Positions 1-45,526 are shown, counted from the first letter of the stretch. The stretch is DNA of 64,000 nt from Escherichia coli (GCF_024298765.1 NZ_CP101210.1); one strand, 5' to 3'. Notes: generated by a model not told the origin, from the sequence alone. A program made the numbers and translations.

Positions 1-1
1 G

Positions 2-214
2 GTCAGCGACAGTGCCAATCCTGTTCATCATTATGGTCATGTGCAGGGAGGCTACAGTGTGCCACTGATTATTACCGCCAGTGACATAACGTCTCATCAG
101 CCCGTCAGTAGAAAAATCAGTGCCCGTCATTTCGCAGGTATTTTTCAGTGGATGAACGGTATTTGTACTGAAAATATACCGCCATTCAATCCGCTGACAG
201 ACGAAGATAATTAA
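2..214 (+). CDS. hypothetical protein, 3' fragment; frame open from window start, stop TAA at 212-214 directly abutting IS5
   Basis: Hand translation of frame 2 gives 70 sense codons then TAA; no family recognised; could be chance. Confidence 0.25.
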   Translation, partial: VSDSANPVHHYGHVQGGYSVPLIITASDITSHQPVSRKISARHFAGIFQWMNGICTENIPPFNPLTDEDN

Positions 215-1409
<1,195 letters not shown>

Positions 1410-2823
1410 CTAGTGGTTAAAGTGGCAGCACTGATGACTTAAGCGATATTGTCTTTGTATACCAGATGAATATCTGCTCCTCGCTCATAGCAGACTTTTG
1501 CATAGGTTCTTTTCCTAAAATAGCATGACATTTGTTTCAAAATTAGCCTGTAAGTCAAGAAAATACTTGGAGAATAATAATCTAGGCATTGGTAGCAACG
1601 ATAAATATCTACATAACCGATATTATCGAGTTACTAAATTGATGTGTTCCGGTAGATGAACAAAATGGTAGATCCTTCTAGAAACAAATAGAGTGTGGAT
1701 GAGGTAACCTGACTCAGCCAATTTATTGAGTCCGTTGAGCATCTGATCGGTTAATCTCTGAGAAAGAGTTTTCAGACAGATTCATTTTCTAGAATTATTT
1801 TTACTCATCAAACAAGGATGATTTTAATTTAGGTTTATTACTATAATTATATTTATTCTTTATATATTCTTTATTCACTCCCTTTTTCATACAATCTCTA
1901 TTGTTATTTACTTCCTGTCTTCACTCACTCTCAATCTTTACACATTCCATTAGTATTACTCTTGTTATCGTATTCACTCCATCCCTCAATCATAACTACT
2001 GTAACTCATATGATGTTCAGGTAAGTTATTCTCTACTACGCTATTGTTGATATTCATCTATTCTCATCTTCAGTAAAACAGTAATTGATTCTAATTTATC
2101 CATTATGAACCGTATTTGCTTAACAATGATTGTTTATCTGAAGTGTTTTAACTATTCTGGTGAACATCAATTTCTCTGTCATTACTGATTAACTGAATGC
2201 TTACTCTTTAATAAGGTATCCATTATTCTGTAACGATTAGCCGAGCAGGGTAAATAACAGAATTAATAGAGTGAATTTCTGATTGTGTTTGTTCGTTCCT
2301 GATTATCTTGTATTTTAAACAAAATGAAAATTATCCATCCATGGTATGTTTCATTCTGGTACCGTGTACCCGTTAACGTTCATATCTTGAACATGAGTTG
2401 TTTTTAACAGATAAAATGAGTGCGTGTAAGTTTATTGGGTTACAGGTATCGTGTTGGCCTTGTACACGGTTTTTTAGAACCATTGAGAGCAAGTTTGTAA
2501 TTTATGATGGTGATTAGTCGTAATATGTTTCTTGAACTTCTGATCGTGGGTTTTTATCGCATATTTTGCAGTATTTCGTGATGTTTATTGATTCTGTATT
2601 TTATTCACTCCTCGTTTATCTCATCTCTTTAGCTAATACCATCAGATAATCCATTTATTTCTGCACAACGCTACGTGTCGTTAATAACCGACGTATCCAT
2701 TCTGTTACAGCATGCCTGATAAATACCGTCTGTAAGTTATTACCGTTTTAGATCTGATTATGAGCGAAAGCATTAATTCGTTTACAGCACTTAAAACGTC
2801 ATTAACTTTCAGGAGTCATCAGC

Positions 2824-3390
2824 ATGCCTAAATCTTACACACCAAACTGGTTTTTTACCGCTTTACTTGACAATCACATCAATCAGTTGGTCGCACGCTA
2901 TTCCCGCCTGCGGGCCTTACGCATGGATTTCTTCTACAGGAAAGATACGCCTGATTTCTTACAACCTGATCATCGCTGGCTTGAATTGCAGTTGCGTATG
3001 CTGCTGGAGCAGGTGGAACAATTTGAAAATATCGTTGGTTTCTTCTGGGTGATTGAATGGACGGCTGATCATGGTTTTCATGCGCATGCGGTTTTCTGGC
3101 TCGATCGTCAGAGGGTTAAAAAAATATATCCCTTTGCGGAGCGGATTACGGAATGCTGGCAGTCTATTACGCATAACAGCGGTTCGGCACACCGCTGTAC
3201 ATATCAGCCGCATTATACATACAACATCAACATTCCCGTGCGTCATAACGATCCCGGGAGCATCGATAATATTCGCGGTGTCCTGCATTATCTGGCGAAA
3301 GAAGAGCAAAAAGACGGACTGTGCGCATACGGTTGCAGTGAAGTTCCTGAACGACCTGCTGCAGGGCGTCCTCGTAAGCCTCACTTCTGA
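2824..3390 (+). CDS. island/prophage-associated hypothetical protein, possibly inovirus Gp2-like (YfjJ/YagK-type) family
   Basis: 188-aa ORF after a long AT-rich leader; family guess from gene context next to alpA and motif GFHAHAVFWLD; not verified. Confidence 0.4.
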   Translation: MPKSYTPNWFFTALLDNHINQLVARYSRLRALRMDFFYRKDTPDFLQPDHRWLELQLRMLLEQVEQFENIVGFFWVIEWTADHGFHAHAVFWLDRQRVKKIYPFAERITECWQSITHNSGSAHRCTYQPHYTYNINIPVRHNDPGSIDNIRGVLHYLAKEEQKDGLCAYGCSEVPERPAAGRPRKPHF

Positions 3391-3617
3391 AGCTTAAATC
3401 CTGAGCTTCCTGTCCTGGAAACATTCCGTCGGTAAAACCTTACCGCCTTGCTTAATGATGTGAACTGAAGTCAACGGAGATCATTCACTCTGAACCACAT
3501 CCGGTGTTCTGTCCCTTGTCGGTGACCTGATCTTCCCGTTCTGCCCCGGTTCTTCACTTATTCCATCAACCCCATCCGCAAACCATAACACGTCAGCTTA
3601 TTCACGGGCAGGACGCA

Positions 3618-4208
3618 TTGTGGGCTGCGCATAACGGAGCATATCTTATGAATGCTATCCCTTATTTCGACTATAGCCTGGCCCCCTTCTGGCCATCTTA
3701 TCAGAACAAAGTCATCGGCGTCCTTGAGCGTGCGCTGCGTGAGCAGTCCGGCTCACGGATACGGCGGATCCTGCTTCGTCTGCCGTGTGAATATGACAAT
3801 ACCTTCAACAGCAGAACGACCTGGTTTGGTATGGATTTTATCGAAACCGTCAGTGCGCTGATGAATGCAACACCCGGACGTGACCTTTGCTGGCTCCTGA
3901 CCCGTCATCCTGAAAAACCGGAATACCATGTGGTGCTGTGCGTCAGACAGGAGTATTTCGACGGCCCCGAACTGGATCGGTTGATTCTGGATGCCTGGAG
4001 TAACGTGCTGGGTTTCGCGTCACCAGGTGAAGCAAAGCCGTACCAGAAGCAGATCACCCGGGATGTGGTACTGGATCGCCGGTCACCGGACTGCGAAGCC
4101 CTGTTTAAGGACCTTATCTGGGCGTTCAGTGATTTCGCCCGCGATCGCCGTGGAGTGCGCGATCCGGAAGCCCGTTGCCTCGCCGGTAATCCCGGTTGGC
4201 AGTGCTGA
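3618..4208 (+). CDS. hypothetical protein (island-associated)
   Basis: 196-aa ORF in same orientation as neighbours; no family recognised. Confidence 0.35.
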   Translation: MWAAHNGAYLMNAIPYFDYSLAPFWPSYQNKVIGVLERALREQSGSRIRRILLRLPCEYDNTFNSRTTWFGMDFIETVSALMNATPGRDLCWLLTRHPEKPEYHVVLCVRQEYFDGPELDRLILDAWSNVLGFASPGEAKPYQKQITRDVVLDRRSPDCEALFKDLIWAFSDFARDRRGVRDPEARCLAGNPGWQC

Positions 4209-4276
4209 AAGCAGCATTCCATCCCATACCTCGTATTACCCCATTCTTCATCAATCTCACAGAGGATATTCTGACC

Positions 4277-4507
4277 ATGTTGACCACAATAAGCCACGAC
4301 AGCGTGTTGCTGCGTGCCGACGATCCCCTGATCGACATGAACTACATCACCAGTTTCACCGGCATGACCGATAAATGGTTTTACAGGCTGATCAGTGAAG
4401 GTCATTTCCCTAAACCCATCAAACTGGGGCGCAGCAGCCGCTGGTACAAAAGTGAAGTAGAGCAGTGGATGCAGCAGCGAATTGAGGAATCACGAGGAGC
4501 AGCATGA
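4277..4507 (+). CDS. alpA: AlpA-family phage transcriptional regulator (MerR-like HTH)
   Basis: Internal Met of ORF 4196-4507 gives ~76 aa MLTTISHDSVLL...FTGMTDKWFYRLISEGHFPKPIKLGRSSRWYKSEVEQWMQQR, typical AlpA pattern. Confidence 0.65.
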   Translation: MLTTISHDSVLLRADDPLIDMNYITSFTGMTDKWFYRLISEGHFPKPIKLGRSSRWYKSEVEQWMQQRIEESRGAA

Positions 4508-4617
4508 AACGAGTTGTGATGCCGGTACGCTGGCAATGTGCAAAATGCCGGCGCTGGTATTGCGGAAATCAGCTCTGTCCCTGGTGCTGGCGACATTACC
4601 GTTCATTTTCCTGCTGA
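4504..4617 (+). CDS. small Cys-rich (zinc-ribbon-like) protein, 37 aa, ATGA-coupled to alpA stop
   Basis: Hand translation MKRVVMPVRWQCAKCRRWYCGNQLCPWCWRHYRSFSC; CxxC and CxxC-like pairs; below ORF-track size cutoff. Confidence 0.3.
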   Translation: MKRVVMPVRWQCAKCRRWYCGNQLCPWCWRHYRSFSC

Positions 4618-4732
4618 CCCTCTCCGGTCAGCCAGCAGGTTGTAGCTCTTTCCTGACTGATTCGTTATTCCTTTCGTCCCGTCAGTCACTGGTGTTTGTA
4701 TCGTACTGTGCTGGTGTTGATGTGCGTTTTCC

Positions 4733-5275
4733 GTGTGTCTGCACCGGCTTAACAAAATTCACAGGGGTAAAATAGTGCAAATAACCGAAGCCTTACTTTC
4801 AGCGCCGGGGGAAATCCGGCGTTTTGTTCAGCAGGGGGTGGACCACTGGCCGCGTCTGCTGGCATTTCACTTCACGCTCCATTCGGCAGAAGGAAACATC
4901 AACGGGCAACAGATTCATGCATTCTGTACTTCCTTTTATGAACGTATTACTGAGCGTAATCACACGACCAGTCCATCATCGCCGGTGGTATTACGCTGGT
5001 TGCGGGAACAACATGGAGGAGCAACAATGCGATGCCTGTTGCTGCTCAGCCAGACGAGTATTTGTCACCCGCGAGCCAGTGTCACAGTTGATGAACAATG
5101 TTCGCAAGTGGTGGATTTACTGCAGCAGACCTGGCGGGGGATGGATACGGGCGGACAATGTCGGGTGGAAAGGTGTTTTCGGGTTACCCGGCCTGATACA
5201 TCAGAGCAATACGTTGCGTTAAAAACGGCTGTTCAGTCTCTGATGCCACTGGTTATTGCAACAATCATCCGGTGA
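4733..5275 (+). CDS. hypothetical protein
   Basis: 180-aa ORF; no family recognised; start uncertain. Confidence 0.3.
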   Translation: MCLHRLNKIHRGKIVQITEALLSAPGEIRRFVQQGVDHWPRLLAFHFTLHSAEGNINGQQIHAFCTSFYERITERNHTTSPSSPVVLRWLREQHGGATMRCLLLLSQTSICHPRASVTVDEQCSQVVDLLQQTWRGMDTGGQCRVERCFRVTRPDTSEQYVALKTAVQSLMPLVIATIIR

Positions 5276-5514
5276 TGACCGGGAGAAATATCGACTCTTC
5301 CGTTAATTTTTACAGACTGATAAAGTTTTGTCTGCTGAATCTTTATACGGAATTCTTTTCAGTATGCGTACACGAATTGATTATCTGGCGGATAAATACT
5401 GTTTTACAGAACTGAATGAATCGCCCCGTCTTCGCCGGCAATGGCAGGATGTCCTGGATGAGTGCCGGCAGACAGAGGCAGGGCCGGAAGAACGGTTGCG
5501 TATTGCACTGTTGA

Positions 5515-7206
5515 ATGTGGATTACGTCAGCAATGCTGAATCTGGATAAGCCTGGTGCCTGCGATCCCAGTGTGGAACGTCTGTTTGAAGGCTTTGCCTT
5601 CCTGATGGGACGTTTGCGTGAAAAGCTGGATGATGACCTGCCGGAGCTCACCGAAGGTCTGGTGAGTCTGCTGTGGCCGCACTATATGCGGACTATCCCG
5701 TCGCTGGCCATCGTTGAGTTCTCGCCTGACTGGCGTAGTCTGCGTCAGGCCGAAATACTGGCTGAAGGCTTTTCCGTTCTGTCCCGTCCTGTCGGGCCGC
5801 ATAAAACCGCCTGCCAGTACCGGGCGACCCGCGATGTGTTGCTACAACCGCTGCACCTTGCAGATGCCCGTCTCCATACTGAATCCGATGGCCGCTCTGC
5901 TATCCGTCTGCGCTTCGAATGCCCTGAAAAAGTGGACTGGAGTAAAGCCGGGATCGACAAAGTCGCCATTTTTCTTAACGCAGAGGCGCCGGTAAGTGCT
6001 GCGCTACATCTGGCAATGACCCGGCGTGTACATGCCATGTATGCGCGTCATGCCGGGACATATACCGGACGTCGTCAGTTTGACGGCTGGTGCAGACCCA
6101 TGGGCTTTGACGACAATGACTGCCTGTGGAAGAAAGCTGATACAGCCTTCAGTGGTTACCAGTTGCTGCTGGAGTATTTCAGCTTCCGTCCGAAGTTTAT
6201 GTTTGTTGAACTGCGCGGCCTCGACACCATTGGGCTCACTGCGGCCAGTACCTGGTTTGAAATCGACATTGTGCTCAGTGAAGCCTGGTCATCCGGTTTG
6301 CCTTTTGAGACAGAAAACTTCCGCCTGCACTGTGCGCCGGTTATCAATCTCTTTACCCTGGAAGCCGACCCGCTGATCCTTAACCCGCTGGATAACGAGT
6401 ACCTGCTCAGGCCGCTGCGTCTTCAGGATGGTCACACCGAAATTTACAGCGTCGATAACATTCACGGCTCGGTGAAGAACGGCAGACACCCTTATGTCCC
6501 GTTCACCAGCTTCCGGCACCGGGGCGGTATGATGCGCCACGATGCTCCTGAACGTTATTACCACACCCGTGTGAAACGGGGACCCTCCGGCCTGTATGAC
6601 ACATGGTTAGTTCTCGGGGGGCGTTCGTTCGAGCTGGAGCAGTTGTCCGATAAACCGGAGTCCCTCTCGATGCGAATCACCGCGACCAACGGGCAGCTTC
6701 CGCGCAGGGCGCTGGAAAGTACGCTCCTGGACAGGGTGGTCAAAACCGGCAAAGTCCCCGTCAGAGTCCTGAACCTGACCGCACCGACGATGCCACTGTA
6801 TCCCCCGGCAAATGACCGGTTTCACTGGCGGGTGATGAGTCACCTCGGATCAAACTTTCTCAGCATGATGGACAATCCGGAGGTGCTGCGGGGGACGCTG
6901 GCGCTCTATGACTGGACCGACGATGAAATGAACCGCCGCCGGCTTGAAGCCATCGTTGCTGTGAAGCACACCCTGATCCGCCGTTTTGAAAAGGGCTTTA
7001 TGCTCCGTGGCGTGGACATTGAGGTCACGCTGAATATGGATAATTTTGCCGGCGAGGGCGATGTGAATCTCTTCGGGGAGATGCTGCACCGTTTCTTTGC
7101 GCTCTATGCTGATGTTCACCTTTTCAACCAGCTCACACTGGTACTGCAACCCACAGGGAAACGACTGAGATGGAAAGAGAATCACAGCCAGCACGTACCG
7201 GGCTGA
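5515..7206 (+). CDS. tssF: type VI secretion baseplate subunit TssF (ImpG/VasA family), apparently lacking ~25-30 N-terminal residues
   Basis: Motif ERLFEGFAFLMGRLREKLDDDLPELTEGLVSLLWPHYMRTIPSLAIVEF is the conserved TssF N-proximal signature but sits at residue ~17; in-frame stop just upstream of 5515. Confidence 0.75.
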   Translation: MWITSAMLNLDKPGACDPSVERLFEGFAFLMGRLREKLDDDLPELTEGLVSLLWPHYMRTIPSLAIVEFSPDWRSLRQAEILAEGFSVLSRPVGPHKTACQYRATRDVLLQPLHLADARLHTESDGRSAIRLRFECPEKVDWSKAGIDKVAIFLNAEAPVSAALHLAMTRRVHAMYARHAGTYTGRRQFDGWCRPMGFDDNDCLWKKADTAFSGYQLLLEYFSFRPKFMFVELRGLDTIGLTAASTWFEIDIVLSEAWSSGLPFETENFRLHCAPVINLFTLEADPLILNPLDNEYLLRPLRLQDGHTEIYSVDNIHGSVKNGRHPYVPFTSFRHRGGMMRHDAPERYYHTRVKRGPSGLYDTWLVLGGRSFELEQLSDKPESLSMRITATNGQLPRRALESTLLDRVVKTGKVPVRVLNLTAPTMPLYPPANDRFHWRVMSHLGSNFLSMMDNPEVLRGTLALYDWTDDEMNRRRLEAIVAVKHTLIRRFEKGFMLRGVDIEVTLNMDNFAGEGDVNLFGEMLHRFFALYADVHLFNQLTLVLQPTGKRLRWKENHSQHVPG

Positions 7207-8015
7207 CGCAGGCCCTGGCCCTTAACAACGATATCTGGCGGGCCAGTTTTTATCGTTTCTGCCAGCTGCTGGAGCTGGAAAATCCGGACGGGCCAAAACT
7301 GGGCACGACCAGCCATCCGGGCGATGACCCGGTGCGATTCAGGCCCTGGCCCGGGATGGGATTCCCGGTCAGCACCCTGAAAGCGGTGGAGATCGACGAA
7401 GACCGTCCGACATTACCCCCAACGATCCGCACGACATTTCTCGGAATGTATGGGGTGGACTCACCTCTGCCGACGTCCTGGCTGGATGATATTGCGCAGC
7501 GCCGTGAAGGACATGAGGCGCTCACCTCATTTCTGGATATTTTCAGCCACCGCATCACCACCCAGTACTACCGGATCTGGCGAAAATATGCGTATCCGGC
7601 CACTTTCGAGGAGGGGGGGCGCGATGCCACATCGCAGTGTCTGCTGGGACTGGTCGGACTCGGTATACCCGGCACCGCTGAACAGGTGGCAACGCCGGTT
7701 TCCCGTTTCCTGGCCTTACTGGGTGCCATGCGATTACCCACCCGCAATGCTGAAGGCATCCGGGCTCTGGTGAGTCTGCTGGCACCGGATACCCGCGCAC
7801 TTATCACCGAACCCGATCCGGTTAAGGTCCATATCGATAACCGCAGTGGGCTGGGTGCCGGAAACCGCATCCGTCTTTCGCAGCGGGCCACGCTGGGTAA
7901 AACGGCAGGGGAAGCATGCAGCCGGCTCCTGATGACACTGGAAACAGCGGATCCGGACGAGGCGGAAGGCTGGTTGCCCACAGATAACCGGAGCAGGATT
8001 TACCGCCTTTCTTAG
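7170..8015 (+). pseudogene. tssG: type VI secretion baseplate subunit TssG (ImpH family), 3'-truncated at IS66 junction near 7970
   Basis: Overlaps tssF stop as in T6SS clusters; 281 codons versus ~330-350 expected; last ~15 codons are IS66-derived sequence read out of frame. Confidence 0.65.
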
Positions 8016-8066
8016 TGTTCAGGATCTTCAGGGTAGTCTCATCTGCATGCACCACCGGACGGTTTA

Positions 8067-8849
8067 TCAACTCGCGATGGAGTAACGCCGCCAGGGGAGA
8101 TAATGCGGCACCCGCCGCGCCAACCATGTCAGCCATCGAACTGACGGGCAGCCCGACACTGAACGGGCAAAGACCTGTTGCTGGCGATACAGAGGCAGGT
8201 GGTCACCGTATTTATTGATGATCACCTGTGTGATGACTGATGGCTCAACGGCACTTTTCGGGAGGATATGTGCCGGCATTTCACCGCTGAACACCTTCTG
8301 GCAACAGGAACAACTGTATTGCGGACGGACATAACGGTTCACCACGAAGTGAACGGGAATATACTCCAGCTTTTCACTCACCGCATCACGGATATAGTGC
8401 AGCGGCTCGTCACATTCAGGGCAATGGTCAGTGTCCGGCTGGATAATTTTTTCCACCCGTGGAAGATGAGCCGGTAAGGGTTTGCGTATCGGGCGTGAAC
8501 GGGACGCTTTTTCGTCTTCTTCAGGGGATTGCGGGAGCAGTTTATCCAGATGTGCGGTAAGCGCGGCGATATCGACATCAACATCCTCTTCGAACAGGGA
8601 GCGTTGCATACCAGCCAGCGTTTCACATTTTTTACCGAAGCGCTGTTGACGAACCAGTTTCAGCATTTCTTCCAGAAGCTGGATGCGCCGGCTTTTCTCC
8701 AGTAATTCCCGCTCTTTTTCGGCATTCTCCGACATGACTTTTTGTACCATGGTAAGTGCCATAGCACGCAGTTTTTCGATGTCATTCGTGGTGTTGAGAG
8801 CGGAGATATCCATACAGGGGAGTATACCACTCCAGATACGGATATTCAT
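8067..8849 (-). pseudogene. tnpC: IS66-family transposase TnpC, N-terminal portion (frameshift near 8140)
   Basis: 260-aa ORF with coiled-coil N-terminus, CPECDEPLHYI zinc motif and HLPLYRQQQVFAR, as in IS66 TnpC. Confidence 0.7.
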
Positions 8850-8855
8850 TATTTT

Positions 8856-9248
8856 TCACTGAGTTAGCAGTGTATTTTGCGTGTTTTCAGGGCGCAGTTC
8901 AGGTTCATTCTGCCAGCCCCATTTCGTCAGGTCATGTCCCTTAACCTGCTGCCAGTCAACACCGGCAATCAGCCAGTTAAACTCGTCGGGAGTTAGGTGC
9001 CAGGCAGCATCATTTGCACGTGGCCAGCGGAAGCTGCCTTTGTGCAGACGGCGGGTACACAACCACACCCCGTGTTTATCCCACCGGAGAACTTTGATAC
9101 GCGAACGGACTTTGTTAACAAAGACGAAGGCGGCTCCCTCATGCCATGTCGACCGGAGTTCATCCTGTATATACTGCGTCAGTGTGTCGATGCCCCGGCG
9201 CATGTCAACAGGTTTAATCGCGATGAAGACATTATCAGGACTGAGCAT
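8856..9248 (-). CDS. tnpB: IS66-family TnpB
   Basis: Internal start MLSPDNVFIAIKPVDMRRGIDTL... of ORF 8856-9542 matches IS66 orf2 pattern. Confidence 0.7.
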   Translation of the reverse strand: MLSPDNVFIAIKPVDMRRGIDTLTQYIQDELRSTWHEGAAFVFVNKVRSRIKVLRWDKHGVWLCTRRLHKGSFRWPRANDAAWHLTPDEFNWLIAGVDWQQVKGHDLTKWGWQNEPELRPENTQNTLLTQ

Positions 9249-9564
9249 ATTTGAGCGCCCTGAAGACATCGGTAAGTTGTGACGGCTGACAGCACATCCG
9301 TACTCCGCCGGGAAGGAAGAGCGTGACTGGCTCATTCGTGACGGGCTGTGGTACATCAGCATGCAGTGGTGGCGCAATATGAACGGGAAGAACGGTCGGT
9401 TCATTTGCCCGGCGTTCAGCTTTTGCGACATCCTGCGGCCATTCGCGAAGTGATGTGAAGGGAATATCGTTGAGTTCACAGTATTGCTGACGTGTAAGAC
9501 CACTGGCGCGCCAGGCAGCAACGTGCTGCCTTTTCTGTTCAATGGTCCATCGGGGTTTTGACAT
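9235..9564 (-). CDS. tnpA: IS66-family accessory protein TnpA
   Basis: 109-aa ORF immediately upstream of and overlapping tnpB in IS66 order. Confidence 0.55.
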   Translation of the reverse strand: MSKPRWTIEQKRQHVAAWRASGLTRQQYCELNDIPFTSLREWPQDVAKAERRANEPTVLPVHIAPPLHADVPQPVTNEPVTLFLPGGVRMCCQPSQLTDVFRALKYAQS

Positions 9565-9649
9565 TGATTATCTCCGGTAAGTTGGTGAATGAATGTCGGT
9601 AATGCTAACTGACTGAAAATCTCTGTGAAGATGACTTCCCCGTAACGAC

Positions 9650-10404
9650 ACCTTCTTTATCGCCTGCCGAATGACGCTGTTCAGCGATTCGATGGCTATC
9701 GTCGTGTCCGGGCTATTCTCAGACGGCAGTCTTAACGAAGGACTGCAGTTCGTGAATGCAAATCGCGTTTATCGAATAATGAGCGAGAATAACCTGTTGT
9801 TATTACATGACAAACCTTCACGACCGCAGAGGGAACATAAAGGCCCGAATATCGGTGAAGGAAAGCGACCCGCGCTGGTGTGCCGATGGCTTTGAGTTCG
9901 GTTGTGATGATGACGAAAAACTGCGTGTCACGTTCGCACTGGACTGTTGCGATCTTGAATCCATAGACTGGGCCGCAAGCACGGGAGGTTATGGCAAAGC
10001 AACGGTGCAGGATGTCATGTCAGGAGCGATAGAAAAACGCTTTGGCGATAGACCGGGATGGCCCATCCAGTGGCTGACCGATAACGGTTCGGCTTATACA
10101 ACTCATGAAACACGGCAGTTCGCCAGAGAGTTGAATCTGGAGCTCTGCACGACGGCAGTCAGTAGCCCTCAGAGTAATGGAATGAGAGAACGGTTCGTGA
10201 AAACGATGAAGAGCGATTACATCAGTATCATACCTAAACCGGACGGGTTAATGGCAGCAAAGAACCTTGCAGAGGCGTTCGAGCATTATAACGAATGGCA
10301 TCCGCATAGTGCACTGGGTTATCGCTCGCCACGGGAATATCTACGGCAGCGGGCCAGTAATGGGTTAAGTGATAACAGGTGTCTGGAAATATAGGGGCAA
10401 ATCC
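9650..10404 (+). mobile_element. IS2-like (IS3 family) element, 3' portion only; ends at IS2 right terminus GGGGCAAATCCA
   Basis: Encodes InsD-like C-terminal region; last ~150 bp identical to the IS2 fragment at 38287-38436. Confidence 0.7.
9671..10394 (+). pseudogene. insD: IS2-like transposase InsD (OrfB), 5'-truncated and frameshifted
   Basis: Frames 9671-9895 and 9807-10394 together give NANRVYRIM...WCADGFEF...WLTDNGSAY...[29 protein letters not shown]. Confidence 0.7.
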
Positions 10405-10650
10405 ATTTCGCAAGCAAAGACTCTGGTAAATACTCGTCATATTTATCCAGATCCTTATCAGGAACAACTGTAGCAGGCTCAAATTCTGAAGGTGCAAAAT
10501 GGCATCTGAATCGATCACGACTTGGCATGCTTCCGATCATTGATTGGCATCCTGCCAGTCGTATCGTAAGCGTAAACCGACCGCCGTATGTAGCCATTAG
10601 ACAAGAATTGGTAACTTAGACGCCCATCTGACACAGACGGACATCTAAGT

Positions 10651-11070
10651 ATGGAATTGCAGGACTGGCGAAAAGAACCTCGTAAAAAGTATTCGAATGA
10701 ATTCAAACTTCGTATGGTTGAACTGGCATCACAACCCGGTGCTTGTGTGGTCCAGATTGCACGAGAAAATGGCGTCAATGATAATGTTATATTCAAATGG
10801 CTCAGACTCTGGCAAAACGAAGGGTGTATATCGCAGCGTCTTCCGGTGACAACCACTTCTGACGCAGGCGTTGAATTATTACCTGTAGAGATAACGCCTG
10901 ATGAGCCGAAAGAACCGGTGGCTGCTCTTACTCCGTCTTTATCCACCCAGACTACTGTCAGTGCCAGCTCCTGCAAGGTGGAGTTCCGTCACGGTAACAT
11001 GACGCTGGAAAATCCTTCACCAGAGCTGCTCACTGTGTTGATCCGTGAACTGACCGGGAGGGGACGATGA
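10651..11070 (+). CDS. tnpA: IS66-family TnpA
   Basis: 139-aa ORF MELQDWRKEPRKKYSNEFKLRMVELAS...; overlaps tnpB start (ATGA). Confidence 0.7.
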   Translation: MELQDWRKEPRKKYSNEFKLRMVELASQPGACVVQIARENGVNDNVIFKWLRLWQNEGCISQRLPVTTTSDAGVELLPVEITPDEPKEPVAALTPSLSTQTTVSASSCKVEFRHGNMTLENPSPELLTVLIRELTGRGR

Positions 11071-11417
11071 TCTCACTCCCGTCAGGCACCCGCATCTGGC
11101 TCGTTGCCGGCGTTACCGATATGCGTAAATCCTTCAACGGACTGGGAGAACAGGTACAGCATGTGCTGAATGATAATCCCTTCTCCGGTCACCTGTTCAT
11201 CTTCCGTGGCCGACGGGGTGACACGATTAAAATCCTGTGGGCTGATGCTGATGGTCTGTGCCTGTTCACCAAACGCCTGGAGGAAGGCCAGTTTATCTGG
11301 CCTGCGGTGCGTGACGGCAAGATATCCATTACCCGCTCGCAACTGGCAATGCTCCTCGATAAGCTGGACTGGCGTCAGCCAAAAACATCCCGTCTTAACG
11401 CACTGACAATGTTGTAA
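11067..11417 (+). CDS. tnpB: IS66-family TnpB
   Basis: 116-aa ORF MISLPSGTRIWLVAGVTDMRKSFNGL..., canonical IS66 orf2. Confidence 0.75.
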   Translation: MISLPSGTRIWLVAGVTDMRKSFNGLGEQVQHVLNDNPFSGHLFIFRGRRGDTIKILWADADGLCLFTKRLEEGQFIWPAVRDGKISITRSQLAMLLDKLDWRQPKTSRLNALTML

Positions 11418-11447
11418 AAATGTCATGGCCGGATTATAAAAACGGTC

Positions 11448-12212
11448 ATGAGTCAGAAATACCTCATTCGGATCACTGAGCTGGAAAGGTTGCTCTCTGA
11501 GCAGGCTGAAGCCCTCCGTCAGAAAGACCAACAACTGAGTCTGGTTGAAGAGACGGAGGCCTTCCTGCGTTCTGCGCTGGCACGTGCCGAAGAAAAGATC
11601 GAAGAAGATGAGCGGGAAATAGAGCATCTGCGGGCCCAGGTGGAAAAACTGCGCCGGATGCTGTTCGGTACCCGTTCTGAAAAACTGCGTCGTGAAGTTG
11701 AACAGGCTGAAGCCCTGCTGAAACGACGCGAACAGAACAGCGATCGTTACAGCGGGCGTGAGGATGACCCGCAGGTTCCCCGCCAGTTGCGACAGTCGCG
11801 TCATCGTCGCCCGTTACCGGCGCATCTGCCCCGCGAAATAAACCGCCTGGAGCCAGAAGAAAGCTGTTGCCCGGAGTGTGGTGGTGAGCTGGATTATCTG
11901 GGGGAAGTCAGCGCAGAACAACTGGAACTGGTGAGCAGCGCCCTGAAAGTGATCCGCACAGAACGGGTAAAAAAAGCCTGTACAAAATGTGACTGCATCG
12001 TTGAAGCACCGGCACCGTCCCGTCCGATAGCGCGTGGTGTCGCGGGCCCGGGGTTACTTGCCCGCGTGTTAACGGGAAAATACTGCGAACACCTGCCACT
12101 GTATCGTCAGAGTGAAATCTTTGCCCGTCAGGGTGTCGAACTGAGCCGTGCGTTACTCTCCAACTGGGTTGACGAGCTCCTGCCATGGAACGTAGCACTC
12201 ACCAATAAATAA
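11448..12212 (+). pseudogene. tnpC: IS66-family transposase TnpC, N-terminal fragment (254 aa of ~520)
   Basis: Coiled-coil N-terminus, CPECGGELDYL zinc motif, HLPLYRQSEIFARQGVELSRALLSNWVDELLPW, then premature stop. Confidence 0.7.
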
Positions 12213-16823: not shown

Positions 16824-17744
16824 ATGAGCACAAGAGTATGGGTACTTGGTGATGCGGTTGTTGATTTATTACCCGAAAGCCAGGGGAGACTACTACAGTG
16901 TCCTGGCGGGGCGCCTGCTAATGTTGCAGTCGGTATCGCAAGGCTGGGGGGGAAAAGTGCCTTTATTGGCAAAGTTGGCGATGATCCTTTCGGTCGCTTT
17001 ATGTATCAGACACTGAGTACAGAAAATGTTGATACACGTTATATGTCTCTTGATCCTCAACATCGCACCTCAATTGTGGCTGTAGGACTTGATGAGCAAG
17101 GAGAAAGAAACTTTACCTTTATGGTACGCCCAAGTGCCGATCTTTTTTTACAACCTGATGGCCTTCCTGCATTTGGGCCGGGTGAATGGCTCCATCTTTG
17201 TTCCATTGCGCTCAGTGCAGAACCTTCCCGAAGTACCGCATTTCTGGCTATGGAGAAAATACGTCAGGCTGGCGGAAACATCAGTTTTGATCCCAATATC
17301 CGCAGCGATCTCTGGCAGAGTGAAGCGCTATTAAGGAAATACCTTGATCGCGCACTTTCGCTGGCGAATATCGCTAAATTGTCCGAAGAAGAGTTGCTAT
17401 TCATCAGTGGCGAAAGCCAGGTTCAGCAAGGCGCATATTCATTAGTACAACGTTATTCGTTGACTTTATTGCTTATCACACAAGGAAAAAATGGCGTACT
17501 TGTGTATTTTCAGGGGCAGTTTATCCACTATCCCGCCAAACCTGTTTCTGTCGTCGATACGACCGGGGCAGGAGATGCTTTTGTCGCTGGATTACTTGCC
17601 GGTCTGGCTGATTCTGGAATACCAACAAATACCAGACAGCTTGAACGAATCATTGTACAAGCTCAGATTTGTGGTGCTCTGGCGACCACGGCTAAAGGCG
17701 CGATGACCGCCTTACCCCGACAACACGATCTCCCTTCACAATAG
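16824..17744 (+). CDS. scrK: fructokinase
   Basis: 306-aa PfkB-family ORF with GAGDAF motif; first gene of scr regulon. Confidence 0.85.
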   Translation: MSTRVWVLGDAVVDLLPESQGRLLQCPGGAPANVAVGIARLGGKSAFIGKVGDDPFGRFMYQTLSTENVDTRYMSLDPQHRTSIVAVGLDEQGERNFTFMVRPSADLFLQPDGLPAFGPGEWLHLCSIALSAEPSRSTAFLAMEKIRQAGGNISFDPNIRSDLWQSEALLRKYLDRALSLANIAKLSEEELLFISGESQVQQGAYSLVQRYSLTLLLITQGKNGVLVYFQGQFIHYPAKPVSVVDTTGAGDAFVAGLLAGLADSGIPTNTRQLERIIVQAQICGALATTAKGAMTALPRQHDLPSQ

Positions 17745-17887
17745 TGATCCTGCTGTTGTATCTGTAACCCGATTTGTCGTGCCTGTCACATTTACTAAAT
17801 CGGTTTAGCGAAAATAATTGCTTTGGCTAAAAAGTCAGCTTTATTATCAACACCTAAACCGGTTTAGCATTTTAGCAATTTTTATAA

Positions 17888-19429
<1,542 letters not shown>

Positions 19430-19489
19430 TACCAGACAACCTCACAGATGTGAAGTTTTTACTGAAATAACAATGAATTAGAGGGTTAT

Positions 19490-20860
19490 ATGGATTTCGA
19501 TAAAATCGCCCAATCGTTGCTTCCTTTATTAGGTGGTAAGGAGAACATCGCCAGTGCAGCACATTGCGCCACTCGCCTACGGCTGGTACTGGTTGACGAC
19601 ACACTTGCCGATCAACATGCCATTGGCCAGATTGATGGAGTGAAAGGTTGTTTTCGTAATTCAGGGCAAATGCAAATTATCTTTGGCACCGGCGTGGTTA
19701 ATAAAGTCTATGCTGCCTTTATTCAGGTTGCAGGTATTAGCGAATCCAGTAAAGCAGATATCGCTCGACTCGCCGCTCAAAAACTCAATCCTTTTCAGCG
19801 AATAGCACGGCTACTTTCTAATATTTTTGTCCCCATCATTCCAGCCATTGTTGCTTCTGGTTTATTAATGGGGCTTCTGGGAATGGTGAAAACATATGGC
19901 TGGGTGAATACCGATAATGCGATTTATATCCTGCTGGATATGTGCAGTTCAGCCGCATTTATTATTCTCCCCATCCTTATTGGCTTTACTGCTGCTCGTG
20001 AATTTGGTGGAAATCCTTATCTTGGCGCGACATTAGGAGGGATTCTGACTCACCCGGCACTCACAAATGCCTGGGGCGTTGCTGCGGGATTTCAGACAAT
20101 GAACTTCTTCGGTTTTGAAATCGCCATGATTGGCTATCAGGGAACGGTTTTCCCCGTGCTTCTGGCAGTATGGTTTATGAGCATAGTGGAAAAACAGTTA
20201 CGCAGGTTTATCCCTGATGCTCTGGATCTCATTCTGACGCCATTTCTGACTGTCGTCATTTCTGGCTTTATCGCTCTTTTGATTATTGGTCCGGCAGGAC
20301 GAGCGTTAGGTGACGGTATCTCTTTCGTTCTCAGCACGCTGATTGCACACGCAGGCTGGTTAGCAGGGTTGTTATTCGGCGGGCTATATTCAGCGATTGT
20401 TATTACGGGTATTCATCATAGCTTCCACGCAATTGAAGCAGGACTTTTAGGTAACCCTGCAATCGGTGTTAATTTCCTGCTGCCTATTTGGGCAATGGCA
20501 AACGTTGCGCAAGGCGGTGCATGTCTGGCGGTATGGTTTAAAACCAAAGATACAAAAATTAAAGCAATCACCCTACCCTCGGCCTTTTCCGCAATGTTAG
20601 GGATTACTGAAGCCGCTATTTTTGGTATCAACCTTCGTTTTGTTAAACCTTTTATTGCGGCCTTAATTGGTGGCGCTGCCGGCGGTGCCTGGGTTGTCTC
20701 TGTTCACGTTTATATGACTGCCGTTGGTCTGACCGCAATACCCGGCATGGCAATCGTTCAGCCAACATCGTTGGTTAATTATATTATTGGAATGGTGATT
20801 GCTTTCGCTGTCGCTTTTAGCCTCTCTTTATTATTCAAATACAAAACGGACGAGGAGTAA
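19490..20860 (+). CDS. scrA: PTS sucrose-specific EIIBC component
   Basis: 456 aa; EIIB Cys motif AAHCATRLRL followed by polytopic EIIC. Confidence 0.9.
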   Translation: MDFDKIAQSLLPLLGGKENIASAAHCATRLRLVLVDDTLADQHAIGQIDGVKGCFRNSGQMQIIFGTGVVNKVYAAFIQVAGISESSKADIARLAAQKLNPFQRIARLLSNIFVPIIPAIVASGLLMGLLGMVKTYGWVNTDNAIYILLDMCSSAAFIILPILIGFTAAREFGGNPYLGATLGGILTHPALTNAWGVAAGFQTMNFFGFEIAMIGYQGTVFPVLLAVWFMSIVEKQLRRFIPDALDLILTPFLTVVISGFIALLIIGPAGRALGDGISFVLSTLIAHAGWLAGLLFGGLYSAIVITGIHHSFHAIEAGLLGNPAIGVNFLLPIWAMANVAQGGACLAVWFKTKDTKIKAITLPSAFSAMLGITEAAIFGINLRFVKPFIAALIGGAAGGAWVVSVHVYMTAVGLTAIPGMAIVQPTSLVNYIIGMVIAFAVAFSLSLLFKYKTDEE

Positions 20861-22269
20861 TGTCGATGCCTTCACAAATGCCCGCGATTTTACAGGCAGT
20901 GATGAAAGGTCAGTCCAAAGCACTGGCAGATGCCCACTATCCTTGTTGGCATCTCGCTCCCGTCACCGGACTAATGAACGATCCAAATGGCTTTTGCTGG
21001 TCTGGAGGCCGCTATCATCTGTTTTATCAGTGGAATCCACTGGCTTGTGATCATAAGTACAAATGTTGGGGGCACTGGAGTTCGACGGATTTATTGCACT
21101 GGCAGCATGAACCATTAGCGCTAATGCCCGATAAAGAGTACGACCGTAATGGTTGTTACTCAGGAAGCGCGGTTAATAATCAGGGCGTTCTCACACTTTG
21201 CTATACCGGTAATGTTAAGTTTGATGATGGCAGCAGAACGGCATGGCAATGTCTGGCCACCGAAAATAACCAGGGCGGGTTTGATAAACTAGGCCCTGTC
21301 ATATCGTTACCTGATGGTTACACCGGACATGTTCGTGATCCAAAAGTCTGGAAGCACAACAGCCAATGGTACATGGTGCTTGGCGCGCAAGATAAAGAGA
21401 AACGGGGGAAAGTGCTGCTGTATTCCTCTGTCGATCTGAATACCTGGTCTTTTCATGGAGAAATTGCTGGTAACGGTCTGAATGAAATAGATAACGCAGG
21501 ATACATGTGGGAATGTCCTGATCTTTTCGCCCTTGATGGTGAATACATTCTCCTCTGTTGCCCCCAGGGAATGGTGCGCGAACATGAGCGCTATCTGAAT
21601 ACTTATCCCTGCGCCTGGCTACATGGACAGTTTGATTACGAGACAGGCAAATTTACGCATGGCGCTTTCTCAGAGCTGGATGCGGGATTTGAATTCTATG
21701 CACCACAGACGATGGAAGCCCCGGACGGGCGACGATTGCTGGTCGGCTGGATGGGGGTTCCTGATGGCGAAGAGATGTTGCAGCCAACCAGAAAGCATCA
21801 TTGGCAGCATCAAATGACCTGTTTTCGCGAACTCTCATTCCAGAAGGGAAAATTGTTTCAGATGCCAATCAGGGAACTCGCGCAACTGCGTGAAGCTGAA
21901 CACTTCTGGCAAGGAAAAGCGGATCATGCGCCGCATGTCGAAATTGAACGCCTGGAAATGGACATCATTCCGTCGGGTGAGCTGTATCTGAATTTTGGCA
22001 ATGCGCTGGCACTGCATCTTAATGACGATGGTATTCAACTACAGAGGAGAAGCCTTGCAGGGCAAGAGAAACTAACTCGTTACTGGCGAGGAAGCGTAAC
22101 GTCACTGAAGATTCTCTGTGACAGTTCCAGCGTAGAGATATTCATCAATAATGGTGAAGGTGTAATGAGTAATCGTTATTTTCCCCATCATCCAGCTTCG
22201 CTGATATTACAGGGTGAGTCTGACGTCACGTTACGCTACTGGTCGCTACGCGCCTGCATGGTAGAATGA
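20860..22269 (+). CDS. scrB: sucrose-6-phosphate hydrolase (GH32)
   Basis: 469 aa with GH32 motifs [27 protein letters not shown]. Confidence 0.9.
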
Positions 22270-22294
22270 GGGTTTTGAATTACGGATCCTCGTC

Positions 22295-23302
22295 GTGAGA
22301 AAAACCAAACGCGTTACTATTAAAGACATTGCTGAACTGGCGGGAGTGTCGAAAGCAACCGCCAGTCTGGTTCTCAATGGTCGTGGCAAAGAGTTACGTG
22401 TTGCGCAGGAAACGCGTGAGCGTGTGCTGAGTATTGCCCAACAGCAGCATTATCAGCCCAGCATTCATGCCCGCTCATTACGGGACAACCGCAGTCATAC
22501 CATTGGTCTCGTCGTTCCTGAAATCACTAACTACGGATTTGCAGTATTTTCCCATGAACTGGAAACATTGTGTCGGGAAGCGGGCGTCCAACTCCTCATA
22601 TCCTGTACTGATGAAAATCCTTCACAGGAAACAATGGTGGTGAACAATATGATTGCCCGCCAGGTTGATGGGTTAATCGTCGCATCCAGTATGCTGCATG
22701 ATAATGACTATCAAAAACTTAGCGAGCAATTACCTGTTGTGTTGTTCGATCGCCACATGAACGGCAGCACATTGCCATTGGTCATTACTGACTCTGTTTC
22801 TCCCACCGCCGCTCTGGTGGCAGATATTGCACGGAGTCACCCGGATGAATTCTATTTTCTGGGGGGACAACCCCGTTTGTCACCGACTCGCGATCGACTG
22901 GAAGGATTTACACAAGGCTTGCAGCAAGCCGGAGTAACGCTACAACCTGAATGGATTATTCACGGTAATTATCATCCGAGCTCAGGCTATGAAATGTTTG
23001 CCGCGCTATGCGCTCGTTTAGGACGTCCTCCTAAAGCCTTATTCACTGCCGCTTGTGGATTACTGGAAGGCGTTCTGCGCTATATGAGCCAATATAATTT
23101 ACTCGACAGTACAATCCACCTGGCGAGTTTTGATGATCATTATTTGTATGATTCACTTTCGGTAAGAATCGACACAATACAACAGGATAATCGCCAACTT
23201 GCTTTTCACTGCTTTGAGCTTATTTCGCAACTGATTGAAGGTGAAACGCCATCCCCATTACAGCGTTATCTTCCTGCCAGTTTACAAAAACGCTATAGAT
23301 AA
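22295..23302 (+). CDS. scrR: LacI-family sucrose operon repressor (GTG start)
   Basis: 335 aa; N-terminal [26 protein letters not shown]; follows scrB. Confidence 0.85.
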
Positions 23303-34886: not shown

Positions 34887-36560
34887 ATGAATTCACCTGT
34901 CGCGGCATGTTCAGCGACCAGCGCCGGACAGAAATATCGCTTTTTCTCAATTATTATGAAAATTAATCTTCCGTTCATACACTGGTCACGGATTAGCAAT
35001 GATAAGCGCCTCGTGTTATCAGTGGTTGTCTTTACCCTTTCTAATCTCCTTGTATCCTCAGGAGCGCATCTGATTTACCGGATATTATTCTTTATCCTGG
35101 CACTTCTTATTATTAAGGCAATGAAATCGATTACGTTGCGTTTGATTCTTGCCTTCCCGTTCACATTACTGACTGCTGCAGATATCAGTATCAGCCTGTA
35201 TTCATGGTGTACATTTGGCACAACATTTAATGATGGTTTTGCAATCAGTATCCTTCAGACAGATCCTGATGAAGTAATAAGAATGTTCAGGATGTATGTT
35301 GTTTATGTTATCGCATTTATTATCCTCTTTTTATTGTTCTTCTGTTCAGCAATAAATAAAACGTCCTCATTGCCATCGGAAAAGGTCACGGTAATTACAT
35401 TTTTATTGTTAATTACAGTAACGTTATATTCTTCCTTCCAGTTTGCGTTGAAGAAACAGTATCAAATAAATGAAGTTGATCCTTACATAGTCGCTTCCCG
35501 GTTTGCCACATATACCCCTTTCTTTAATCTGAACTATTTTGCACTGGCCGCAAAGGAGCATCAGAGATTAATGACGATTGCTGATACCATACCTCACTAC
35601 GATCTGGTGATTACGGATAACAACACTGACGTATTTGTTCTGGTGATTGGTGAATCTGCAAGGACTGATAACATGTCCATTTACGGGTATTCGCGCCCTA
35701 CCACACCAGAGCTTCAGAAACAGAAATCACGACTGAAACTGTTCACTCAGGCAATCAGTGGCGCACCTTACACCGCGCTGGCTGTTCCACTGGCGTTATC
35801 TGCCGATAGTGTACTGCATCATGATATCCGTAATTACCCTGATAACATTATCAACATGGCGAATCAGGCGGGGTTCGATACCTGGTGGCTCAGTGCGCAG
35901 TCCGCTTTCCGACAGAACGGAACGGCTGTGGCCAGTATCGCCATGCGGGCCAGAAACAGAATTTATGTCAGAGGCTATGATGAGTTACTGCTCCCACACC
36001 TGGCTGAAGCACTGAACAGTAATCCGGGGAGCAGGAAACTGATTGTTCTGCATCTGACGGGCAGCCATGAACCGGTTTGCAGTAACTGGCCCAGAGATAA
36101 AGCCGTGTTTAAACCGCTGGATACAGAAGAAGTCTGTTACGATAATTCCATTCATTATACCGACAGTTTGTTGGGACAGGTTTTCACCATGCTGGAAACG
36201 CGTCAGGCATCCGTCATGTATTTTTCAGATCACGGTCTGGAGTATGACCCGACAAAAGAACATGCCTATTTTCATGGTGGAATAAAACCCAGTCAGCAGG
36301 CTTATCATGTTCCGATGTTTATCTGGTACAGCCCGGCACTGGGAGAGCATGTCGATCGCCAGACGGTGAACAGCGTTTTTTCCACTGCGTATAATGATTA
36401 TCTGATTAATGCATGGATGGGCGTAACCAGACCGGCTCAACCGAAAACGCCGGAGGAGGTGATTACCCGCTGGCAGGGGAAATCCGTGGTTTTTGATGCC
36501 AGTCATAACGTGTTTGATTACAAAGTATTACGAAAGAACTTTAATGAACTCCAGGAATAA
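34887..36560 (+). CDS. phosphoethanolamine transferase, sulfatase superfamily (YhbX/EptA-like)
   Basis: N-terminal TM helices plus motifs VLVIGESARTDNMSIYGY, HLTGSHEP, YFSDHGL; close to remembered E. coli YhbX; start may be Met at 34956. Confidence 0.75.
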   Translation: MNSPVAACSATSAGQKYRFFSIIMKINLPFIHWSRISNDKRLVLSVVVFTLSNLLVSSGAHLIYRILFFILALLIIKAMKSITLRLILAFPFTLLTAADISISLYSWCTFGTTFNDGFAISILQTDPDEVIRMFRMYVVYVIAFIILFLLFFCSAINKTSSLPSEKVTVITFLLLITVTLYSSFQFALKKQYQINEVDPYIVASRFATYTPFFNLNYFALAAKEHQRLMTIADTIPHYDLVITDNNTDVFVLVIGESARTDNMSIYGYSRPTTPELQKQKSRLKLFTQAISGAPYTALAVPLALSADSVLHHDIRNYPDNIINMANQAGFDTWWLSAQSAFRQNGTAVASIAMRARNRIYVRGYDELLLPHLAEALNSNPGSRKLIVLHLTGSHEPVCSNWPRDKAVFKPLDTEEVCYDNSIHYTDSLLGQVFTMLETRQASVMYFSDHGLEYDPTKEHAYFHGGIKPSQQAYHVPMFIWYSPALGEHVDRQTVNSVFSTAYNDYLINAWMGVTRPAQPKTPEEVITRWQGKSVVFDASHNVFDYKVLRKNFNELQE

Positions 36561-40397: not shown

Positions 40398-40591
40398 TTT
40401 ACCCCCTTAAATAAAAACAAATGTGGGTACTCTTATATTCTCTGTATCAACACAAAATACCATTCATATTCTTCACCAGACTGGTATATATAATCGCAAC
40501 ACATTACCAAAAGCACACAGCAAAGATAATTAATGTGTACTGGCAAAGTAATGACAGATAATGTCAGAAAAAATACTGATATCGATATGTC

Positions 40592-43299: not shown

Positions 43300-43361
43300 T
43301 ATTCTTACCCTCACGGGATAATATTGAGAAACAGGACGGAGCTGAGGCTCCGTACCTCTCT

Positions 43362-45488: not shown

Positions 45489-45526
45489 AAGACATTCTCC
45501 TTTCTCAGGGATGCCTTACTGTTGAT

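Follow-up and report, generated by a model that had tools for sequence, protein, structure and literature searches.

The 64-kb stretch of Escherichia coli DNA analyzed here (NZ_CP101210.1; hereafter the window) surrounds the tRNA-Phe gene pheV, and everything to the left of this gene is island DNA. Near its left end lies a gene for an AlpA-type regulator together with Gp2-like genes, with no integrase next to them; the sole integrase of the window (46744-47958, minus strand) is 42.2 kb away from alpA. Does such a distance betray a rearranged or composite island? A preliminary description of the sequence, which placed this gene set and its separation of about 42 kb correctly, suggested so on the grounds that alpA-type regulators usually sit beside the integrase of P4-like elements, and proposed either a composite origin or an internal inversion or deletion. 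From the comparisons below, we consider it probable that positions 2824-5540 are a conserved Gp2-like/AlpA backbone module of P4-integrase tRNA islands of Enterobacterales (the CP4-57/CP4-44 kind), stranded here by deletions. The features in question are the following.

1410-2823: AT-rich leader (33% GC) with no long open reading frame (ORF), upstream of the Gp2-like gene
2824-3390, plus strand: YagK/YfjJ ("inovirus Gp2-like") protein of 188 amino acids (aa), putative HUH-type nickase or initiator (Pfam PF11726)
3648-4208, plus strand: diverged YagK/YfjJ paralogue, 186 aa by the RefSeq start (hhalign and the homologue P0080)
4277-4507, plus strand: AlpA/Vis/TorI-type winged-helix protein, 76 aa, putative recombination directionality factor or transcription activator (PF05930)
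4775-5275, plus strand: conserved hypothetical protein of 166 aa (hyp166), RefSeq "UCP030791 family putative phage-derived protein"
5364-5540, plus strand: ECs1377-family pseudogene fragment, N-terminal 59 codons (NF052300 profile positions 1-44 of 190)
46744-47958, minus strand: P4-like integrase beside pheV, 404-aa ORF, 38% identical to K-12 IntA
48105-48180, minus strand: tRNA-Phe gene (pheV), found with ARAGORN; attL side of the island

The tRNA-Phe gene is followed on the same strand by the P4-like integrase, as in other islands of this class. A tblastn search with five P4-type integrases as queries revealed no other integrase or integrase fragment in the 64-kb window. To the right of pheV we identified yqgA and speC by comparison with strain 165. 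The annotation from module to integrase was transferred from the island of strain ECJXMCRH7 (NZ_CP067342.1), from which window positions 1410-47436 are two substitutions and one IS10 insertion apart (IS, insertion sequence).

Position of the module in related islands

Used as query, the module (2700-5520) found a match in 3,061 of the 5,426 complete E. coli genomes. Its copy number has a median of 2 per genome and reaches ten at most, and we inspected its surroundings in eight of these genomes. Seven islands have the module in identical order and orientation. Four are located at pheV (1223, TUM12355, 5283, FG31-1), one at pheU (ECJXMCRH7) and one at leuX (O157:H7 86-24), and in Eco_70239 the arm described below lies beside cadC. 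In all seven, the YfjJ-like gene, its paralogue, AlpA, hyp166 and ECs1377 occupy one strand. Upstream, after a variable slot that may hold a TIR protein, a further Gp2 gene, YfjI or a restriction enzyme, an arm on the opposite strand encodes a GTPase, DUF932, antirestriction, RadC, DUF987, CbeA/CbtA, DUF4942 and ParDE proteins. The repeat at the end of this arm was located in five islands; it consists of 19 nucleotides (nt) of the tRNA-Phe 3' end in four of them and is a leuX-like repeat in the leuX island.

Where the tRNA-proximal integrase of these islands could be seen (ECJXMCRH7, FG31-1 and 86-24), the cargo separates it from the module, over a distance of 19 to 44 kb (21 kb in FG31-1). 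The cargo itself is wholly different from one island to another: a type VI secretion system (T6SS) remnant with sucrose and raffinose genes, dnd/dpt (86-24), type I restriction-modification, or cdiBAI. The window conforms to this pattern, its module being convergent with the integrase and running in the order Gp2-like, AlpA, hyp166, ECs1377. The preliminary description had named a comparison with related islands as the test that could overturn its proposal, and as regards the position and orientation of the module the outcome goes against that proposal: both are native in seven islands, including those at tRNA-Phe. In the eighth genome, KC-Dl-1, dsdCXA and cdiBAI lie on either side of the module, and the arm is missing from the surrounding 20 kb.

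We did not retain the proximal end of Eco_70239 as a clean example of the integrase-to-module interval, because this island is broken by an IS3-mediated rearrangement near htrE. On the side away from cadC, this island (L060) abuts a truncated htrE (yad fimbrial usher) via IS3 elements, which points to a large chromosomal rearrangement.

The same segment extends beyond E. coli. When one genome of each species was scanned for the AlpA protein, 44 loci were obtained and then classified by tblastn. Twelve of them, with an AlpA at least 67% identical and long flanks, formed a core set whose genera include Tatumella, Yokenella, Siccibacter, Kosakonia, Superficieibacter, Rosenbergiella, Hafnia, Tenebrionibacter, Citrobacter, and Yersinia. 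A motif-intact Gp2-like gene lies immediately upstream of AlpA in all 12 loci; homologues of hyp166 or ECs1377 lie downstream in eight, and a GTPase or DUF932 gene is present upstream on the opposite strand, mostly 4.5-6.5 kb off, also in eight. The module is an ordinary and widely shared backbone segment, found in about ten further enterobacterial genera. Two contigs labeled "Chryseobacterium sp. 18061" (L029) and "Collinsella sp." (L016, a metagenome-assembled genome, MAG) also bear enterobacterial copies of the module. The layout of the former is that of a Citrobacter sp. 18056 contig (L019), and both copies look like contamination or mis-binning.

Within the core set, an integrase lies within 10 kb of AlpA at a single locus, at 9.3 kb and convergent. 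Among more distant relatives, Symbiopectobacterium has a tRNA-Leu, an integrase and, after 7.7 kb, AlpA, and an enterobacterial MAG holds tRNA-Leu, integrase, Gp2-like gene, and AlpA within 2.3 kb. The relative orientation in these compact relatives (2.3, 7.7, and 9.3 kb between AlpA and integrase) is that of the window, with tRNA and integrase on the minus strand and AlpA on the plus strand. In the Gilliamella relatives alone (AlpA 52-66% identical), alpA precedes the integrase by about 80 bp. The expectation that alpA normally adjoins its integrase is therefore true of CP4-57, where the distance is 1.2 kb, and of Gilliamella, but is not the rule for this AlpA clade.

The native layout begins with the tRNA gene and an integrase pointing into a zone of variable cargo. 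Facing it from the other side come ECs1377, hyp166, AlpA and one or more Gp2-like genes, and beyond these the divergent arm, running from the GTPase through DUF932, antirestriction, RadC, CbeA/CbtA and in some cases ParDE to attR. The module thus faces the integrase across the cargo zone, and the accretion of cargo sets the distance between them.

Integrase relics and scars of deletion

Since the position of alpA is native, compositeness has to be sought elsewhere, and integrases offer one source of evidence. Two types occur in these islands, the 404-aa type found beside pheV here and a 420-aa type; they are 43% identical to each other, and the leuX integrase shares 68% identity with the latter. 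The 420-aa type, complete or fragmentary, lies directly outside attR in all five islands in which the repeat was located (L001:3287-4549, L006:3094-3253, L008:3160-3942, L010:3056-4321, L013:14168-14327), which indicates repeated tandem accretion at tRNA-Phe and tRNA-Leu. In addition, sister islands with the exact junctions of the window contain two internal fragments that are 90-94% identical to the 420-aa type and 43-48% identical to the pheV integrase of the window. One of them lies 5.9 kb from alpA and the other beside a phosphoethanolamine transferase pseudogene. The integrases found near AlpA relatives in other genera are all of the 420-aa type (59-82% identical, vs. 37-42% to the integrase of the window). 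Together, the relics inside sister islands and the integrases near AlpA elsewhere suggest, short of proof, that the module came with an element of the 420-aa type and that the pheV-proximal integrase is a later arrival.

Several points limit these conclusions. In FG31-1, a pheV-type integrase is combined with the module, the arm, and attR, and no internal integrase fragment is annotated, a layout in which this integrase may be the partner of the module. IS remnants border the 156-bp internal fragments, which may be secondary arrivals. The survey covered a handful of E. coli islands and 44 loci, set against 6,213 module copies, and the left flank was covered as far as window position 1.

In another history, pheV, the integrase, and the module (on to attR in relatives) would be one non-composite island in its ancestral order, with the pheV integrase as the partner of the module. 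In ECJXMCRH7 and FG31-1, a single unit bounded by tRNA and repeat does comprise the integrase, the cargo, the module, the arm, and a 19-bp attR, and no internal integrase fragment is annotated in FG31-1. We nevertheless find this rather unlikely: the two fragments of the 420-aa type occur in sister islands that share the same module-tssFG-IS66 junctions, the integrases near AlpA relatives elsewhere resemble that type far more than the one at pheV, and a truncated T6SS cluster and many IS remnants separate module and integrase. The island is accordingly a mosaic with deletions and with relics of more than one integrase, and alpA is in its native position. The composite nature put forward in the preliminary description is in part borne out, by integrase relics and scars; the distance of alpA from the integrase, on which it was argued, by itself says nothing on compositeness.

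Scars flank the module on either side.

1-214, plus strand: 3' end of a yjgX-like phosphoethanolamine transferase gene, foreign left flank of IS5
215-1409, minus strand: IS5, 1,195 bp, transposase at 361-1341, inverted repeats at 215 and 1409
5528-5532: deletion junction ECs1377'/'tssF, with CAGCA microhomology (5 bp)
5527-7979, plus strand: T6SS remnant, tssF without its first 30 codons (to 7206) and tssG (7170-7979) (TssF/TssG Pfam and TIGRFAM)
7948-10405, minus strand: IS66 remnant (transposase fragment, tnpB, tnpA), with an IS3-family fragment on the plus strand

Both the GTPase-DUF932-antirestriction-RadC-CbeA/CbtA arm and the attR repeat are absent from the window, so that this copy is truncated, whereas ECJXMCRH7, only two substitutions apart, still has both, as do others. 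The break coincides with IS5, which lacks a target-site duplication: its flanks read TTAA on the left (211-214) and CTAG on the right (1410-1413). The right-hand CTAG is uninterrupted in 1223 and ECJXMCRH7, where the sequence runs on into the TIR gene and the attR arm. As it has no target duplication, IS5 is the mark of a deletion or recombination event in which this copy lost its arm and attR. We also searched for the second att-like repeat whose detection the preliminary description had recommended, and found no further copy of the tRNA-Phe 3' end in the window, either with up to 3 mismatches in 23 nt or with up to 5. Without an attR in the window, site-specific excision of this copy is unlikely.

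The left junction of IS5 occurs in no complete genome of the collection. In 2,408 E. coli genomes, a phosphoethanolamine transferase gene or pseudogene matches the segment beyond it (1-214) at 100%, and in strain 165 this yjgX-like copy adjoins an integrase fragment inside the pheV island. We rejected the idea that the segment is copied from the phosphoethanolamine transferase gene within the island (34887-36560), as the two have no DNA similarity, and no DNA paralogue of the segment was found elsewhere in the window. A model of deletion between two IS5 copies, suggested by an IS5 in TUM12355 that seemed to lie at the same site, was likewise dropped, as the TUM12355 copy lies about 420 bp off, with a TTAG duplication of its own.

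On the other side of the module, homology to ECs1377 stops at 5532 and homology to tssF begins at 5528, 91 nt into the intact tssF of DSM 103246. The resulting fusion joins ECs1377 codon 59 to tssF codon 31 and is common to at least 56 genomes. DSM 103246 (NZ_CP019944.1, L012) has an intact T6SS cluster in another island, and its tssF-tssG is 97.4% identical to the remnant in the window. The tssG gene is itself cut at its 3' end by IS66, homology to which starts from about 7975. A further loss is evident by comparison with strain 1223: positions 9855-10345 are the recombinant copy left by a 12.1-kb deletion between copies of an IS3-family fragment, and the window is without L001:28935-41039. 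This deletion took a 156-bp integrase fragment (L001:28994-29149), an AAA protein gene, and a NotI-type restriction-modification pair. The internal deletion that the preliminary description offered as one possibility is accordingly borne out, at the IS5 boundary, at ECs1377'/'tssF, and over these 12.1 kb. By the RefSeq annotation of strain 1223, copies of the IS3-family transposase fragment lie in the window at 9855-10405 and 38139-38436, and are 94% identical over 236 nt.

From left to right, the island contains the module, the tssF'/tssG' remnants, IS66 and IS3 remnants, a cluster of major facilitator superfamily (MFS), RidA, and isomerase genes, and the scr sucrose genes. These are followed by an H-NS paralogue with an outer-membrane protein, then IS903'-blaCTX-M-14-IS10-ISEcp1, and finally several hypothetical genes, the phosphoethanolamine transferase gene, IS1, the raf genes, and the integrase. 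The interval between alpA and the integrase is indeed rich in IS, as had been noted at first sight: it includes IS66 remnants, IS3 fragments, IS10, ISEcp1, IS903, and IS1. The chromosomal extended-spectrum beta-lactamase unit in this cargo spans 26045-30440 and comprises an IS903 fragment followed by three elements.

26715-27590: blaCTX-M-14, identical to the ECJXMCRH7 copy annotated CTX-M-14
27835-29043: IS10/ISVsa5, between blaCTX-M-14 and the ISEcp1 transposase gene
29178-30440: ISEcp1 transposase gene (ECJXMCRH7 annotation mapped onto the window)

Two sugar clusters complete the cargo. A complete sucrose phosphotransferase cluster (scrK, scrY, scrA, scrB, scrR) lies at 16824-23302, and a raffinose-type cluster beside the integrase (39003-46594) encodes a porin, a glycoside hydrolase of family GH32, an MFS transporter, an alpha-galactosidase, and a LacI-type regulator.

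The same 46-kb island occupies pheU in ECJXMCRH7, between yjdC-pheU and cadC, and pheV here, by yqgA-speC. Homology of window positions 1410-48228 to NZ_CP067342.1 (L004, L013, L014) extends through the tRNA gene and about 45 nt further. The difference may be due to relocation between the two identical tRNA-Phe loci, to recombination, or to inversion.

Genes of the module

The first Gp2-like protein (188 aa) matches YagK_YfjJ_C (PF11726) at 27.9 bits, above the cut-off of 25.8. It keeps the HxH and YxxK motifs, with H86, H88, Y156, and K159 invariant in the family alignment, and so presents the metal-binding HxH and catalytic tyrosine motifs that characterize the HUH superfamily. Its match to the Rep ORF2/G2P family is weak (24.7 bits, below the 27.8 cut-off). 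Foldseek searches of the PDB with the YagK/YfjJ family gave weak matches only, and no solved structure was found by sequence for the YagK/YfjJ profile.

The plural "Gp2-like candidates" of the preliminary description proved apt, although the second gene has to be recognized indirectly. Its 186-aa product has no direct match in Pfam, NCBIfam, PHROGs, or PADLOC, and the BLASTP comparison of the two Gp2-like proteins is not significant (E 0.2). A profile of this protein with its few relatives, however, aligns with the YagK/YfjJ profile in hhalign at 97% probability (E 1.2e-10, 144 columns), and P0080, a protein 35% identical to it, matches PF11726 at 41.8 bits. We therefore read 3648-4208 as a putative diverged member of the YagK/YfjJ family. 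The HxH and YxxK motifs are gone, with E-Y-H and D-x-x-R in their places; in other genera the same slot, directly upstream of AlpA, is occupied by a motif-intact Gp2-like gene. This paralogue is almost confined to E. coli: 1.84 billion representative proteins gave 38 matches, and remote homologues of full length number only two.

The 76-aa product of 4277-4507 belongs to the Phage_AlpA family (PF05930; 41.6 bits, cut-off 21, E 1.2e-10) and matches the PHROG "excisionase and transcriptional regulator" at 4.6e-10. Its similarity to K-12 AlpA is only 35% identity over 31 aa.

Ratios of nonsynonymous to synonymous substitution rates (dN/dS), computed against five homologous islands, are 0.15-0.21 for the first Gp2-like gene, 0.15-0.24 for the paralogue, and 0.08-0.13 for alpA, and exceed 2 for an antisense control ORF. 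The first three genes of the module are supported by this purifying selection, which in the paralogue persists despite the loss of both presumed catalytic motifs. Constraint on hyp166 is weaker (0.37-0.55). This protein has no family match in Pfam, NCBIfam, PHROGs, or PADLOC, and its homologues sit downstream of AlpA in other genera as well. The ORF that ends at 5549 covers residues 1-59 only of the intact 212-aa ECs1377 gene of FG31-1 (tblastn). Another ORF, 4536-4775 (RefSeq hypothetical, WP_000335228.1), was rejected and is probably not a gene, being interrupted by stops or frameshifts in three of five homologous islands.

The leader upstream of these genes contains only small unconserved ORFs of 44-49 aa. 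From about 2082 on, it is 76-96% conserved among islands. Rfam searches at E <= 1 over 1-12000 found no structured RNA, in the leader or elsewhere in that range, and promoter and terminator scans of 1400-5700 gave no excess over shuffled sequences. The sequence TATTCACTCC is present in the leader in three exact copies (1872, 1971, 2602) on one strand and is absent from the rest of the window; its counterparts in other islands are degenerate.

Predicted role and related systems

By analogy with AlpA, Vis, TorI, and SEN1998, the AlpA-type protein would act in trans as an excision helper, as an activator of the integrase gene, or as both. The Gp2-like protein with HUH and tyrosine motifs may nick the excised circle or start its replication, with the motif-less paralogue as a presumed non-catalytic partner.

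A bolder assignment, which we hold decidedly unlikely, would make the Gp2-like/AlpA pair and the AT-rich leader a replication or transfer origin module of the very large family of CP4-like tRNA islands, composed of nickase, accessory factor, and origin. The pair sits exactly at the divergent junction with the antirestriction/RadC/toxin-antitoxin arm, and this arm resembles the "leading region" of conjugative plasmids. In such a scheme the motif-less paralogue would have a regulatory or structural part, and the module of the window would be a dead copy. If true, this would explain the movement of apparently non-conjugative islands.

That the genes are instead the remnant of an independent phage-type element inserted in the island, either a filamentous inovirus prophage or a P4-like satellite, is very improbable. 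The family name "inovirus Gp2" and the sub-threshold Rep ORF2/G2P match would favor it, and AlpA is a core gene of P4-like satellites. The neighbors of the Gp2-like genes, however, are AlpA, hypotheticals, and T6SS remnants, with no coat, assembly, Zot-like, or single-stranded DNA-binding genes of a filamentous prophage among them. As for a P4-like satellite, there is no primase gene (YfjI/alpha), tblastn with YfjI finding nothing in the window, and the Psu, Delta, and Sid families are missing from the module proteins in a specific search confined to 2824-8015. Homologues of the Gp2-like protein occur in only 2 of 50,697 phage records, at 23% identity; moreover, no att-like repeats surround the module, which is always embedded in the same island backbone. 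The label "prophage-like" given in the preliminary description is thus to be used with caution, since no other inovirus or P4 genes accompany the set, while the genes it designated are real.

Barely conceivable, finally, is an internal inversion that carried alpA from a place next to the integrase across the island. Some local rearrangement of cargo did occur, as the T6SS is co-oriented with the GTPase-Ag43 arm in DSM 103246 and opposite to the arm of its own lineage in the window remnant. Yet no inverted repeats flank the module, and every island examined, compact ones and those with unrelated cargo included, shows it in one and the same orientation relative to tRNA, integrase, and arm, so that no inversion is needed.

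Read as a backbone module, the segment can be compared with several known systems. CP4-57 of K-12 (intA-yfjH-alpA-yfjI-yfjJ ... yfjP ... ypjF) shares with the window a P4-like integrase (38% identical) and AlpA-family and YfjJ-family proteins and, in relatives, the GTPase-DUF932-antirestriction-RadC-toxin/antitoxin arm. It differs in that alpA is close to intA, co-oriented with it, and placed before yfjI-yfjJ. The window instead has the YfjJ-like gene first, then its paralogue and AlpA, in a module that converges with the integrase and diverges from the arm, and it lacks yfjI; an alpA-int pair of the CP4-57 type, within about 2 kb, is not found there. At the protein level the resemblance is limited for AlpA, as given above, and for YfjJ (22%).

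A similar layout is that of the Pseudomonas tmRNA islands I23, I44, and I55, which have intY at one end, a Gp2-like gene and then alpA at the other, and variable, often defense-related, cargo between (bioRxiv 10.1101/2024.08.29.610337). A tyrosine integrase at the tRNA-like end, distal Gp2-like/alpA genes, and RadC in the core are common to both (bioRxiv 10.1101/2024.08.29.610337). Host and attachment site are different, however, and AlpA comes last before the repeat in Pseudomonas, whereas in enterobacteria the arm follows beyond the module.

TorI (KplE1) and P4 Vis belong to the same small winged-helix family as the AlpA-type protein, whose nearest solved structures are 8c3t (AlpA family) and TorI (1z4h); the similarity is weak (E 0.0012 and 0.018, respectively), and the genes of TorI and Vis adjoin their integrases. 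The ROD21 island, attached at asnT, belongs to a family in which TIR-domain and H-NS-like genes are present, and to our knowledge it has no Gp2-like pair. ROD21 of Salmonella encodes the integrase SEN1970 and an AlpA/Vis-like directionality factor, SEN1998 (PMC8844411). ROD21/EARL islands, known from Salmonella and other Enterobacterales, combine a P4-like integrase with a distant small AlpA/Vis/Hef-like factor, 28 locus tags apart in a 26.5-kb island, and the factor binds both att regions (PMC8844411; PMC3976249). As in the window, the gene for the winged-helix factor is distant from the P4-like integrase, a likeness drawn from these descriptions.

The gene inventory itself has been reported for pheU, pheV, and selC islands of Shiga toxin-producing E. 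coli (STEC) negative for the locus of enterocyte effacement, where the functions were described as unknown (PMC6174562). These islands include inovirus Gp2 proteins, YfjI, KlcA antirestriction, YafZ/YkfF, ProQ/FinO, phosphoethanolamine transferase, and YeeP...YeeU/YeeV; the report is an inventory, without analysis of the position of the module or of the junctions found in the window (PMC6174562). The segment is already annotated in thousands of E. coli genomes, and a layout with the integrase at one end and Gp2-like and AlpA genes at the other has been described before.

What the present locus adds is a correction to a rule of thumb. In this island family, an alpA far from the integrase is normal and no sign of rearrangement, and compositeness is to be read from junctions and integrase relics. 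The function of the Gp2-like/AlpA pair bears on the excision and spread of these widespread islands, of which this one carries blaCTX-M-14 together with sucrose and raffinose genes.

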